From: Escherichia coli O157:H7
GTDB lineage: Bacteria; Pseudomonadota; Gammaproteobacteria; Enterobacterales; Enterobacteriaceae
DNA length: 64,000 nt
Direction: 5' to 3' (one strand)
Assembly (NCBI RefSeq): GCF_013167455.1
Contig: NZ_CP038328.1
Shown: piece by piece, positions 31,364 through 34,035 of the stretch
Position numbering within the stretch: the stretch's first letter is position 1
How the letters are laid out: every line of letters starts with the position of its first letter
Program-made: the position numbers and the translations under genes
Notes under the pieces: generated by a model
What the model was told of the DNA's origin: nothing
Seen by the model: the letters and a program-made list of their open reading frames with translations, nothing else
Databases searched by the model: none

Positions 31364-31553
31364 GCTTCACCTCCGCAGAGATCAAACGCTGGATGCAAGA
31401 CATCGCAGGTGCATTTCTGCATCTGTGACAAGGTAAGGAGTTCAGATTGTGGTCGCATTTAAGTCCCCTTAAATGCGCAGAAGTCACCGGAGTTGTTCAA
31501 GCTCCGGTGACATTATTATGGAAGGTTGATACTAAAAAATCAAAAATTGAATA

Positions 31554-31745
31554 TCATTGGCGATAGTCTAGCTTGTGATATCCACAAGCTACTTCAATGA
31601 AGCGACGAGTAACATTTTGTGTCATCCATGTTTTTTCAGTTAAGTGCCACACCCAGTTCAAAATTTGCTGATGTGTTGAACATGTACTAAGCGGGATGTT
31701 GTATTCATAAGCAACATTGATTCCGCAAAATCGGTGTCGTGTCAT
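31554..31745 (-). CDS. Hypothetical small protein
   Basis: 63 aa ORF in AT-rich DNA; weak. Confidence 0.2.
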   Translation of the reverse strand: MTRHRFCGINVAYEYNIPLSTCSTHQQILNWVWHLTEKTWMTQNVTRRFIEVACGYHKLDYRQ

Positions 31746-31864
31746 GACCGATTCACGTTGACCTGCGCCCTGTTGAGTGCCTGGGGATATTCTTGCTCGA
31801 TAGTTAATATCATAGTAGTTACTTTACTTTCATACCATAGCACGGTTGAAAAAGTGATTATTAC

Positions 31865-33391
31865 TCAAAAATAAACCTCACCATCAACCATATATTTGAG
31901 AGCACTTATCGCCTGCTGGGCGGATATTACTTTCATTAAAGGATAGTGTTTAAAAACAATGCCATTCATAAAATAGATATCACAGGTTTTATTATCCGTA
32001 TTAATTATGATTTTTTCGAATATTTTATAGGCAAGTGTACGGCATAACTCTCGTCCATTTTTACTGGTTAAGTCAATAGCATAAAAATCACTGAATGAAT
32101 TTACACCTTTACTCTTCAAAGTTTTCAATGATACCAAAGCTCTTCGTAATTCCTTATCTAATAGTCTTATTTTCTCTGCTATAGCGGTAACTTCAGGCGC
32201 GACAGACAATGCAACGATTAAATTATTAATTTTCATCTGAAGCTCAATAATTTTTAACTCTAAAGTTTCATTAGCATCTTTCTTGTTTTCAACTGGTTGA
32301 ATTTTGCTACAATTAAAAAGCAATTCATTAATGATATTATAATCAACCAAATCTCTCTTTATTGATGGCCTGTCACATCGATGTAATCTTCTCATCGGAC
32401 AAACATAATAGCCATGCAAACTTCCAGATACCGCATGAACAATCATGGTATTACCACAAGCCTCACACTTCATAACTGTTCGAAGTAGATTTATTAGCAT
32501 AGGATTCTTGCTACTATTGCTAATACCAAAAGGTGCCAACCGAATTTCCTGTACAGCGTAAAACAAATCATCTGATATGACTCTGGGATAATAGCCAGCG
32601 ATTTCACTTATCCCTTTCCCTCTTGCACGATATGAAGGTACGCATATACCTATCAGAGCTTTATTCGCTAATAATTTTTCAATTACAGAAGGCCCCCATG
32701 CACTTTCTTTTCCTGAGAAATTCTTTACAGCATGATCATTTAAATACTTGGCTATTGCATTCAATGAGCGCCTTTCCATCCTGAGTTTAAAAATTAGCTC
32801 AATAGTTTTCACCCTGTCGGGGTCTGGAACAAAAGCCGTTCTTTTGTCATCTAAGGAGAGCCATCTCGGACAAGACGCCGTCATAATCGTACCTGATTCC
32901 AGTGCATCCTGCCGTTTTTTCTTCCATGATAATTTAACCCGACTTGACTTTATCTCGCTTTCTTCATTTGCCCTTTGTGCTATAAGTATGGCTTTTATTA
33001 ATGAATATGGCTCATTCAAAGAGTCAATATTATAGACTGTATTGTCGCAAAGAGTTATAACATCAATACCGTGATTCAAAATCAATTTCAGACGTTCAAT
33101 CGCTTCACCGACTTTTTCTCTTGAAAGTCTGTCCAGACTTTCAACTAACAATGTAGTTCCTGGCAATATATAACCATGCTCTATAGCATCTAAAAATTCC
33201 GAAAAAGCTCCTGATTGTGCATGCTTTCCTTTGAATGCACTTAATCCTAAATCTTCATATGTTATGGTATCAAGATAATAATCACTATTTACCTTTAACC
33301 ATTCAGCAATAAGTCTTCTCTGTCGGTTTAATGAGTCGCCAGACATCTGACCTGGTGATGAAAATCGCATATATGCTATGGCTTTTTTCAT
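31865..33391 (-). CDS. Large serine recombinase (resolvase N-domain plus recombinase and zinc-ribbon-like domains), YbcK-like
   Basis: 508 aa; N-terminal resolvase fold (AIAYMRFSSPGQ...SLNRQ), Cys-rich C-terminal region; very AT-rich gene. Confidence 0.75.
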   Translation of the reverse strand: MKKAIAYMRFSSPGQMSGDSLNRQRRLIAEWLKVNSDYYLDTITYEDLGLSAFKGKHAQSGAFSEFLDAIEHGYILPGTTLLVESLDRLSREKVGEAIERLKLILNHGIDVITLCDNTVYNIDSLNEPYSLIKAILIAQRANEESEIKSSRVKLSWKKKRQDALESGTIMTASCPRWLSLDDKRTAFVPDPDRVKTIELIFKLRMERRSLNAIAKYLNDHAVKNFSGKESAWGPSVIEKLLANKALIGICVPSYRARGKGISEIAGYYPRVISDDLFYAVQEIRLAPFGISNSSKNPMLINLLRTVMKCEACGNTMIVHAVSGSLHGYYVCPMRRLHRCDRPSIKRDLVDYNIINELLFNCSKIQPVENKKDANETLELKIIELQMKINNLIVALSVAPEVTAIAEKIRLLDKELRRALVSLKTLKSKGVNSFSDFYAIDLTSKNGRELCRTLAYKIFEKIIINTDNKTCDIYFMNGIVFKHYPLMKVISAQQAISALKYMVDGEVYF

Positions 33392-33635
33392 GGTGACACC
33401 TGCTAACTTATGCTTTTATAAACCTTAGTGGTGAGATATAATTTTTGTTTAATTTTTATTTAAAAAGACAATTACGATCACACTATCTTGAATATACAAC
33501 AATAATCGTATTGCAATTTGCTTACGCAATAATCTTGAAGGCACAAAAGAATACACAAAAACTAAAAACATTAACAAAAGCGGCCCATGTAAAGATATGA
33601 ACCGCCATATTGCAGTCTTTTAAAAGAAATTATTT

Positions 33636-33968
33636 TTAATGTGGTGTGCTTCGTGACAATAAATTAATAACCAACACACCGGCACAAATCAACATCATGC
33701 CTATAACGGCTGGCAGGTCCAGCCGTTGGCCGAAAAACCCCCATGATAGTAAGCTAATCAGGACAATACCGACTCCTGACCAGATAGCATAAGCAATCCC
33801 TGTAGGAATATAAGCCAGCGTCTGAGCTAATAACCAGAATGATGCACAATAACAAATAATTGTACCAACAGATGGCCATAACCGTGTAAAACCTTCTGAA
33901 AACTTCATTAAGGTTGTACCAATGACCTCTGCAAGTATTGCACCACCAAGATAAATATAAGGGTTCAT
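33636..33968 (-). CDS. emrE: Small multidrug resistance efflux protein EmrE
   Basis: 110 aa from MNPYIYLGGAILAEVIGTTLMKFSEGF..., matches recalled EmrE. Confidence 0.9.
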   Translation of the reverse strand: MNPYIYLGGAILAEVIGTTLMKFSEGFTRLWPSVGTIICYCASFWLLAQTLAYIPTGIAYAIWSGVGIVLISLLSWGFFGQRLDLPAVIGMMLICAGVLVINLLSRSTPH

Positions 33969-34035
33969 AACATATTCTTTCCTGTTCAAACTGGAGAGAA
34001 TTGTACTACAGTTTGAACTCAACTCACCTGTTTCA

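Follow-up and report, generated by a model that had tools for sequence, protein, structure and literature searches.

An AT-rich cargo slot carrying emrE and the large serine recombinase gene ybcK in a lambdoid prophage of Escherichia coli O157:H7

The 64,000-nucleotide stretch of E. coli O157:H7 DNA analyzed here (the window) contains a defective lambdoid prophage at icd, in which an AT-rich cargo sits between ybcN and ren. The interval from ren to orf33/ybcN is probably a variable cargo slot of a DLP12/Perceval-type lambdoid prophage that holds three passengers and in which the ybcK module has become stranded. These would be emrE, which has a terminator-like hairpin of its own, the module formed by ylcJ and ybcK, and 344 bp left over from a third cargo. 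The initial annotation had described an AT-rich block with a 508-aa serine recombinase and emrE between ybcN and ren, and the block was found essentially where it had been placed (31400-34030), except that the AT-rich DNA starts at 31521 and the first ~120 bp (31400-31520) are still conserved lambdoid sequence. The features of the region are as follows:

30908-31363, minus strand: ybcN (DNA base-flipping protein / NinB-position gene), from the ORF and RefSeq of an identical genome; conserved Q-side flank
31360-31458, minus strand: 33-aa hypothetical gene ('orf33' of phage 82), RefSeq CDS; conserved lambdoid segment
31483-31511, no strand assigned: perfect 12-bp-stem hairpin, from the terminator-like scan; conserved segment
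31521-31864, minus strand: 344-bp filler, in O157-type prophages only; what deletions have left of a longer cargo
31865-33391, minus strand: ybcK, 508-aa large serine recombinase, from Pfam, family alignment and AlphaFold/Foldseek
33392-33635, minus strand: ybcK leader, 29% GC, with a small ylcJ-like ORF, from the ORF list, RefSeq and PF23688 YlcJ
33579-33606, minus strand: terminator-like hairpin with T-rich tail just downstream of emrE, from the terminator-like scan
33627-33641, no strand assigned: AAATTATTTTTAATG, emrE-side copy of a 15-bp direct repeat, overlapping the emrE stop codon
33636-33968, minus strand: emrE, 110-aa SMR multidrug efflux pump, from RefSeq and phrog_1395
34036-34338, minus strand: ren, from the ORF and RefSeq; conserved flank on the replication-gene side

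The GC content of 31521-34035 is 36.2%, the lowest of 1,230 sliding 2.5-kb windows over the whole 64 kb (mean 50.8%, sd 5.3%), with 35.6% in ybcK, 29.1% in the ybcK-emrE spacer and 41.7% in emrE. The composition thus differs, as in a moron, from that of the neighboring phage genes at ~50% (50.0% for the genes from Q to ybcN, 49.6% from ren to O). The presence/absence pattern is also that of a moron: other genes fill the same slot in kindred prophages, and emrE is found without ybcK. On the ybcN side, homology is kept in all cargo variants up to 31520-31545, just past the hairpin at 31483-31511, which overlaps a 'possible regulator-binding site' in the phage 82 record and 'IR4' in the phi80 record; the segment with the 33-aa ORF and the hairpin is common to phages 82, phi80, HK639 and HK225. 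On the ren side, the alignment to a phage without emrE and ybcK picks up again at 34072. A 100%-identical O157-type genome in RefSeq carries the same genes under the names ybcK and emrE, and both are already annotated in public records. The prophage has a tyrosine integrase (36187-37329) and an excisionase (35961-36197) adjoining icd, which bears out the earlier remark that a serine recombinase lies inside a tyrosine-integrase prophage; it is devoid of the immunity and early-left regions, and its O gene is truncated.

The block had previously been regarded as a single moron. Comparison with related loci does not favor this view and shows instead that the block is put together from emrE, the ylcJ-ybcK module and the 344-bp remnant, each of which varies independently of the others. 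The locus does vary structurally between genomes, as the initial annotation had anticipated, in slot contents, ybcK presence and breakpoints. emrE without ybcK occurs in two different contexts, and downstream of ybcK the lineages part at nested breakpoints, 9, 66 and 218 bp past the ybcK stop codon. Alternative contents of the slot are two hypothetical genes, ybcL-ybcM, an alpha/beta hydrolase gene and P22AR fragments. The 344-bp filler corresponds to three pieces spread across 1,265 bp of strain UMB200201_11 (99.7%); it is what deletions have left of a longer cargo composed of a P22AR-C fragment and hypothetical genes. An unannotated 63-aa ORF within the filler (31554-31745, minus strand) has a full-length match to phrog_2559 (E 4e-51).

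The closest known loci have the same order of genes up to ybcK and differ beyond it. K-12 DLP12, which sits at argU (the window prophage being at icd), shares the order ren-emrE-ylcJ-ybcK, with 99.5% nucleotide identity in ybcK and 97-98% in the whole block, but its sequence parts from that of the window 9 bp past the ybcK stop codon, and ybcL-ybcM take the place of the 344-bp remnant. Phages Perceval, 4A7, Lambda_4C10, 1W, 3W and D2 have a tyrosine integrase 99% identical to that of the window prophage, the order ren-emrE-ybcK and a 97.8% identical YbcK protein; unlike the window prophage they are complete isolates, and an alpha/beta hydrolase gene follows ybcK. In the record of Perceval, classed as Bievrevirus, the gene already bears the label 'Large serine recombinase, YbcK homolog'. 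The K-12 and 4A7-type segments downstream of ybcK are unrelated (the global alignment score equals the shuffled mean).

A lead to the origin of the middle piece is that ylcJ-ybcK appears to behave like a discrete insertion of ~2.07 kb at the emrE stop codon. In the 4A7 type, a 2,073-bp ylcJ-ybcK segment is flanked by a perfect 15-bp direct repeat, of which two copies are present in L004, the prophage of this type that was examined for the repeat, one in the window and one in the ybcK-less L102. In two empty-site genomes, strains F467 and Rb-50, ylcJ-ybcK is exactly absent and a single 15-bp repeat is in place. A relic near fliE in UTI89 has emrE-ybcL-ybcM without ybcK, as compared with the K-12 type. 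In the window the second copy of the repeat is missing and the far end of the module is lost, and no clear repeat surrounds ylcJ-ybcK in the K-12 type. A possible decayed emrE 3' fragment downstream of K-12 ybcK was rejected, as its alignment was unconvincing. The repeat is AT-rich, and shuffled AT-rich flanks occasionally reach 15 bp; the two empty sites could also stem from one short-homology deletion unrelated to YbcK. As we read the sequences, the candidate sites largely lack the dyad symmetry that att sites of serine integrases usually have. The far end of ylcJ-ybcK adjoins the hydrolase gene in all 18 viral and metagenome contigs (IMG/VR included), among which no second target site for the segment was found, and the reconstructed circle junction had 0 matches in metagenome contigs.

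According to our working model, YbcK most likely arrived with an insert of ~2.07 kb right at the emrE stop codon, an insertion that YbcK itself may have made. It would act like other serine integrases: dimers would bind two att sites and pair via the coiled coil, Ser11 would then cut at the central dinucleotide, and the DNA would be rejoined after subunit rotation. Replacement of the far end of the module leaves the window with one candidate site (33627-33641), and the module would therefore be stranded and is presumably inactive at present.

The domain analysis showed three domains, with the catalytic serine and the four zinc cysteines intact, so the degeneration contemplated in the initial annotation was not observed. 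Pfam detects Resolvase (PF00239, residues 4-161, E 2e-18), Recombinase (PF07508, 191-284, E 5e-14) and Zn_ribbon_recom (PF13408, 302-357, E 2e-7), and the protein is laid out as a catalytic domain with Ser11, a recombinase domain, a zinc ribbon and a coiled coil. R9, S11, D87, R88 and R91, as well as the zinc-ribbon residues C309, C312, C331 and C339, are invariant in a 20-sequence alignment of the YbcK family (homologues at 40-61% identity). The AlphaFold model (pLDDT 79) contains two long antiparallel helices (367-397 and 401-427), which would correspond to a coiled-coil motif inserted in the zinc-ribbon domain, and, after them, strands 458-484. Judged from these residues and the model, YbcK is complete and looks catalytically competent.

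A Foldseek search of the PDB with the YbcK model returned SPbeta SprA (9dxd, 2e-18), PhiC31 (9tep, 7e-15) and Bxb1 (9iu2, 2e-14) over the full length (~530-610 aligned columns) and A118 (4kis, 6e-8), whose constructs were matched over partial length. The TM-scores of these matches lie at 0.2-0.3, low values such as a flexible protein of several domains can be expected to give. With the single YbcK protein, phmmer found no match among the sequences of solved structures; only the family profile reaches SprA (E 7e-6). YbcK thus resembles SprA, PhiC31 and Bxb1 in domain order and predicted fold along its whole length. It is very distant from these enzymes and from that of Listeria A118 (13-19% identity in structural alignments), and unlike theirs its gene lies in mid-prophage, and that prophage is integrated by another enzyme.

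Among E. coli alleles, ybcK has a dN/dS of 0.06-0.08 at a dS of 0.11-0.18, with 32-48 synonymous versus 7-16 non-synonymous changes. The stranded-module account leaves this strong purifying selection unexplained. The gene is moreover retained by active phages that have their own integrase, and it belongs to a scattered family of solitary serine integrases; YbcK is among the few K-12 site-specific recombinases lacking a known activity. K-12 counts ybcK among its 16 site-specific recombinases, and deletion of ybcK had no effect on excision of the H47 island (PMC5426353). The literature searched reports neither recombination by YbcK nor an att site or a partner protein for it.

Selection would be accounted for if YbcK were a selected accessory enzyme acting in trans on a site in the chromosome, a rival phage, a satellite or a plasmid, for example by trapping or rearranging rival DNA or by switching a host gene, which we consider possible but unlikely. 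Purifying selection is strong even where the far end of the module is lost, ybcK is kept in isolated active phages, and its relatives recur singly in accessory positions of unrelated prophages, such as the nin region or after tail-fibre genes. Phage resistance has recently been linked to small serine recombinases that cryptic prophages of E. coli encode (PMC12529663). Against a role in trans, PADLOC defence models matched neither YbcK nor the 63-aa ORF, the ylcJ-like ORF or the hydrolase, neither a conserved partner gene nor a target site emerged, and the literature yielded no phenotype, including in the H47 excision assay cited above. The ybcK region is moreover transcriptionally silenced in K-12 (PMC4150792, PMC10954037), where the untranslated region ahead of ybcK holds a Rho/NusG-dependent terminator (PMC4150792).

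The wider family bears on both a role in trans and a possible mobility of the gene. Relatives of YbcK are solitary genes for serine integrases of ~508 aa across Enterobacterales, located in accessory slots of prophages, at prophage ends, in chromosomal islands and beside umuDC; an Edaphovirga genome has two family copies that are at least 97% identical and lie in different contexts. Homology between members from different contexts ends 32-135 bp ahead of the start codon and, on the other side, does not extend past the stop codon. Limits so tight around the gene would suit an enzyme acting in trans. They hardly leave space for att sites on either side and are equally compatible with a selected gene that is passively shuffled. 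Around 17 other family members, no direct repeats above those in shuffles were found, save for a 200-bp duplication in L021.

A more speculative idea, which from the sequences at hand we regard as improbable, is that YbcK-family genes may be self-mobilizing mini-elements of nearly gene size, consisting of the recombinase and at most 300 bp at each end, with a crossover at AAATTATTTTTAATG. Such elements would insert just behind the stop codons of accessory genes, whether these belong to phages or to islands; the two ybcK-less genomes would then show either an unoccupied site or the outcome of an excision, and the window would have a stranded, one-ended element. Comparable enzymes are the serine-recombinase transposases TnpX of Tn4451 and TndX of Tn5397, whose elements insert at targets similar to the joint formed in their excised circles; these elements bear cargo and move among many sites. 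The arms flanking the 15-bp core of ylcJ-ybcK likewise resemble each other, but for the ylcJ-ybcK segment a single site was observed. If the sites of YbcK were found, they might bring to light mobile elements of a very small type and could supply an E. coli-native serine integrase for genome engineering; for the window itself, the analysis mainly gives a tidy account of an annotated and stable cargo region.

Returning to the stranded module as the preferred reading, the survey of E. coli genomes indicates that the locus is stable. ybcK is present in 1,423 of 5,426 complete genomes, with a median of one copy. In 1,401 genomes the emrE-ybcK junction is covered from end to end, versus 1,397 with near-full-length ybcK; by this comparison of counts, which is not a genome-by-genome check, the junction looks intact in essentially all carriers. 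Together with the lack of convincing flanking repeats, these near-equal counts do not support the suggestion of the initial annotation that the recombinase drives inversion or integration at this locus.

The same junction would be the obvious place for attP if YbcK were a second working integrase of the phage, with attP beside ybcK and an alternative bacterial site, and its coverage in nearly all carriers makes this very doubtful in spite of the full serine-integrase architecture. Some relatives do lie at prophage ends beside host genes, the usual place of an integrase (at ssrA in Atlantibacter, lepA in Erwinia and yggS in Edaphovirga), but at the E. coli loci studied in detail the prophage end holds a tyrosine integrase (at icd here and at a pectinesterase gene in L017/L018). 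The active phages carrying ybcK (Perceval, 4A7, 1W, 3W, D2 and Turner) have their own tyrosine integrase, as does every prophage or phage looked at in detail, and Perceval encodes its own Int/Xis. Of 1,528 matching places, only one is on a plasmid.

Loss of the far boundary in the window and damage to ybcK in some lineages, namely a deletion fusing emrE to ybcK, an in-frame 30-aa deletion and an IS1203 insertion, could suggest that ybcK is a dead relic of a second element, or a pseudogene in the making, kept by hitch-hiking. A relic of a second element had been proposed in the initial annotation, and the discrete ~2.07-kb insertion lends some support to the second element. The relic part did not stand: the low dN/dS indicates that ybcK is not decaying, the frame is intact with all catalytic and structural residues invariant, and full-length copies occur in ~1,400 genomes, which renders this explanation highly improbable.

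A role for YbcK in inverting DNA or as a phase switch that controls emrE or its neighbors, in analogy to the invertases Pin, PinQ and PinR of other E. coli cryptic prophages, is already largely refuted and scarcely credible, as YbcK has 508 aa with a zinc ribbon and a coiled coil, versus ~190 aa for Hin/Gin/Pin-type enzymes, the inverted repeats near ybcK are short, AT-rich and 71-93% complementary, most with one arm within coding sequence, and no inverted arrangement was seen at the locus among the genomes listed, with junction counts matching ybcK counts. The search for flanking inverted and direct repeats that the initial annotation had proposed gave short AT-rich matches at chance level, both in the window and around the K-12 version. 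A tail-fibre invertase role for the fibre-adjacent relatives was also rejected, as no duplicated inverted fibre segment is present.

Rfam gave nothing at E <= 0.1 on either strand of 30800-34600, the LexA-box pattern CTGT-N8-ACAG is absent from 31001-34500, and promoter-like sites are as common as in shuffles (10 found versus a mean of 10.0). The leader with the ylcJ-like ORF (33449-33571 in RefSeq, 33449-33577 in the ORF list) always accompanies ybcK in E. coli. The hairpin after emrE has 10 pairs, 5 of them GC, and the tail TTTGTTAATG. In the mechanical ORF list emrE starts from an upstream TTG and reaches 34022. Its nucleotide identity to K-12-type loci is 97-98%, and its 110-aa product EmrE, a textbook model transporter, is covered by phrog_1395 over residues 1-110 (E 4e-58), as expected for an SMR protein.

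The initial annotation described a very AT-rich stretch between ybcN and ren with a 508-aa large serine recombinase and emrE, and the ORF list, Pfam search and GC scan bear this out. The ORF list gives:

30908-31363, ybcN
31865-33391, minus strand, 508-aa ORF (ybcK)
33636-33968, minus strand, emrE
34036-34338, ren

The GC content of 31521-34035 is 36.2%, compared with 50% on either side, the lowest among 1,230 sliding 2.5-kb windows in the 64 kb. The start originally placed at 31400 was right except for its first ~120 bp, which belong to a conserved lambdoid segment and not to the cargo. 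This segment (31402-31545) contains a perfect 12-bp-stem hairpin at 31483-31511 and shares 80-93% identity with phages HK639, HK225, phi80 and 82; its counterpart is annotated in phi80 as IR4 and in phage 82 as a possible regulator-binding site accompanied by an orf33 promoter. The Q-side breakpoint common to all cargo variants lies just past the hairpin segment.

Many E. coli O157:H7 chromosomes match the 3.5 kb around the block at 100% identity. In the RefSeq annotation of one such chromosome the minus-strand order is Q, ylcG, rusA, ybcO, ninE, ybcN, a 33-aa gene, ybcK, a 40-aa gene, emrE, ren, P and O without its N-terminus, followed by an excisionase, a site-specific integrase and icd; this gene content and the adjacency to icd identify the element as a defective lambdoid prophage at icd. 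Its tyrosine integrase and the one encoded by Perceval, an isolated temperate phage, are 99% identical. At 35033-36200, ~100 bp separate the N-terminally truncated replication gene O from the excisionase and integrase genes, which are divergently oriented; the immunity and early-left region has thus been deleted in its entirety, leaving the prophage defective.

The observation is correct and its genes are not new: both ybcK and emrE are standard annotations of the K-12 cryptic prophage DLP12, and the Perceval record already labels the gene as a large serine recombinase. ybcK is listed among 16 site-specific recombinases of K-12, and its deletion left excision of the H47 island unchanged (PMC5426353). 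Its leader contains a Rho/NusG-dependent terminator (PMC4150792), and in vivo Hfq binds the gene in a polyphosphate-dependent manner (PMC10954037).

We consider it somewhat more probable than otherwise that the block is a stable composite cargo slot, in which YbcK is intact, conserved, one-ended here, probably silent and rearranging nothing detectable. The idea of a single moron block did not hold, as both the slot contents and the DNA following ybcK vary between lineages. In related prophages two unrelated hypothetical genes occupy the same slot, with homology to the window stopping at 31545 and restarting at 34072. ybcK is followed by ybcL-ybcM in the K-12 type, by an alpha/beta hydrolase gene in the 4A7/Perceval type, and by P22AR fragments in other emrE-ybcK carriers. 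Divergence among these lineages sets in at three nested points, 9, 66 and 218 bp past the ybcK stop codon, a pattern that looks like ordinary phage mosaicism and deletion rather than a single crossover site. The 344-bp filler of the window matches one strain as three pieces over 1,265 bp and is therefore a deletion remnant. Within it, an unannotated 63-aa ORF (31554-31745, minus strand), not called by RefSeq in the identical O157-type genome examined, matches the phage family phrog_2559 over its full length (E 4e-51). The K-12-type locus (L005) has a 298-bp specific segment between ybcK and ybcL with a perfect 13-bp inverted repeat, AAAATACGTGACA...TGTCACGTATTTT, at 3754-3803 (24 bp between arms).

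A YbcK-driven inversion or integration at the locus, as first proposed, found no support. Repeats flanking the block, inverted or direct, in the window and in the K-12 version, were only short, AT-rich, chance-level matches. ybcK is present in 1,423 of 5,426 complete E. coli genomes (median one copy), and a 501-bp emrE-ybcK junction probe reached coverage of 80% or more in 1,401 genomes, compared with 1,397 for ybcK itself; although this compares counts and not individual genomes, it leaves little room for split junctions. Each prophage or phage examined in detail has its own tyrosine integrase.

Nor is ybcK a decaying relic: dN/dS between E. coli alleles is 0.06-0.08 (dS 0.11-0.18), showing maintenance and not decay, and the protein retains Resolvase, Recombinase and Zn_ribbon_recom domains (Pfam). 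Of the columns in an alignment of 20 homologues with 40-61% identity (Atlantibacter, Yersinia, Erwinia, Pantoea, Kluyvera, Citrobacter, Ewingella and others), 105 are invariant, among them R9, S11, D87, R88, R91 and the four zinc-ribbon cysteines. The AlphaFold model (mean pLDDT 79) has the expected order of catalytic domain, long helix E, recombinase domain and zinc ribbon, followed by two paired long helices, at 367-397 and 401-427, before the closing strands. Foldseek aligned it over its whole length with the SPbeta, PhiC31 and Bxb1 integrases (E 2e-18 to 2e-14) and also matched it to shorter A118 constructs. A phmmer search of PDB with the single sequence gave no match, and only the family profile reached SprA (E 7e-6); YbcK is thus sequence-remote from solved integrases. 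That YbcK has a selected trans-acting function seems unlikely to us, and each remaining rival less likely still. The literature search found no report of YbcK activity or target, and the region had no match to PADLOC defence models, Rfam families or a LexA box.

Disrupted alleles also occur. E. coli prophages in which a P22AR fragment follows ybcK (L017-L020) encode a 478-aa variant that lacks 30 residues in frame (179-208, flanked by two SL dipeptides) where the recombinase domain begins; this variant is probably inactive, though the remainder of the gene is conserved. ybcK is interrupted by IS1203 in O157:H7 strain F7386 (NZ_CP038360.1), and in strain FDAARGOS_401 (L003) a deletion fuses the remains of emrE and ybcK.

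ylcJ-ybcK can behave as a discrete insert. The UTI89-type relic near fliE has emrE-ybcL-ybcM without ybcK; what separates it from the K-12 type is a ~2.07-kb insertion/deletion, which on the emrE side ends ~10 bp away from that gene's stop codon. Strains F467 and Rb-50 provide an independent case, with ren-emrE-hydrolase and ylcJ-ybcK precisely absent. In the occupied form (L004, a 4A7-type prophage), a 2,073-bp segment lies between perfect copies of a 15-bp direct repeat, AAATTATTTTTAATG. This repeat overlaps the stop codon of emrE, and the arms flanking it are partly similar. One copy is present in the empty form, found in only 2 of 5,426 genomes, and the window retains only the emrE-side copy (33627-33641). 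An integrative element would leave such a pattern, and so would one short-homology deletion between AT-rich repeats that arose by chance. All 18 viral and metagenome contigs containing the far end of the segment share one context, and the reconstructed circle junction was not found among metagenome contigs. We regard a gene-sized self-mobilising integrase element targeting the emrE stop codon as improbable.

Elsewhere, YbcK-like genes (~506-510 aa) occur singly in several settings. In nin regions, one lies in a Pantoea dispersa lambdoid prophage with a tyrosine integrase at its end, and others lie beside KGG and dinI in a metagenome phage (L021) and Atlantibacter RC6. In L021 the DUF1367 gene 5' end is directly duplicated over 200 bp (86% identity), and the two copies, at 7652-7851 and 10633-10831, bracket the recombinase-KGG-dinI segment; a 646-aa SIR2-domain gene lies a few kb upstream. 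Other copies directly follow tail-fibre assembly genes at a prophage end, in Atlantibacter (beside ssrA), Yersinia (beside a P2-like prophage) and Erwinia (beside lepA), and one lies in a plasmid-like region of Citrobacter. The gene immediately follows umuD-umuC in Ewingella, Pantoea and Enterobacter ludwigii (L026, L029, L030; ~8000-11530 each). The UmuC proteins of Ewingella and Pantoea share 73% identity, whereas their recombinases share only 46%, which could reflect repeated insertion at umuDC or faster recombinase evolution. Edaphovirga cremea (L034, L038, L039) has the gene in two places of one genome, at least 97% identical, with the assembly broken at contig ends by the pair; one copy adjoins yggS-proC, which are core genes, the second sits beside mutS after a tyrosine integrase, and the repeated sequence extends to 135 bp upstream of the start codon. 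Across contexts, homology is confined to the gene, starting 32-135 bp upstream and ending at the stop codon or before it. The family clearly moves, either by its own activity or as a selected passenger.

In many E. coli there is a second, chromosomal allele of emrE with ~86-92% identity to the window's; it lies in a DLP12-like relic that lacks ybcN-to-Q and ybcK. In UTI89 (L006, 2899-6342) this relic, porin-ybcM-ybcL-emrE, adjoins fliE. In ~2,200 genomes the best junction-probe match fell in the 80-90% identity band and covered the emrE end only.
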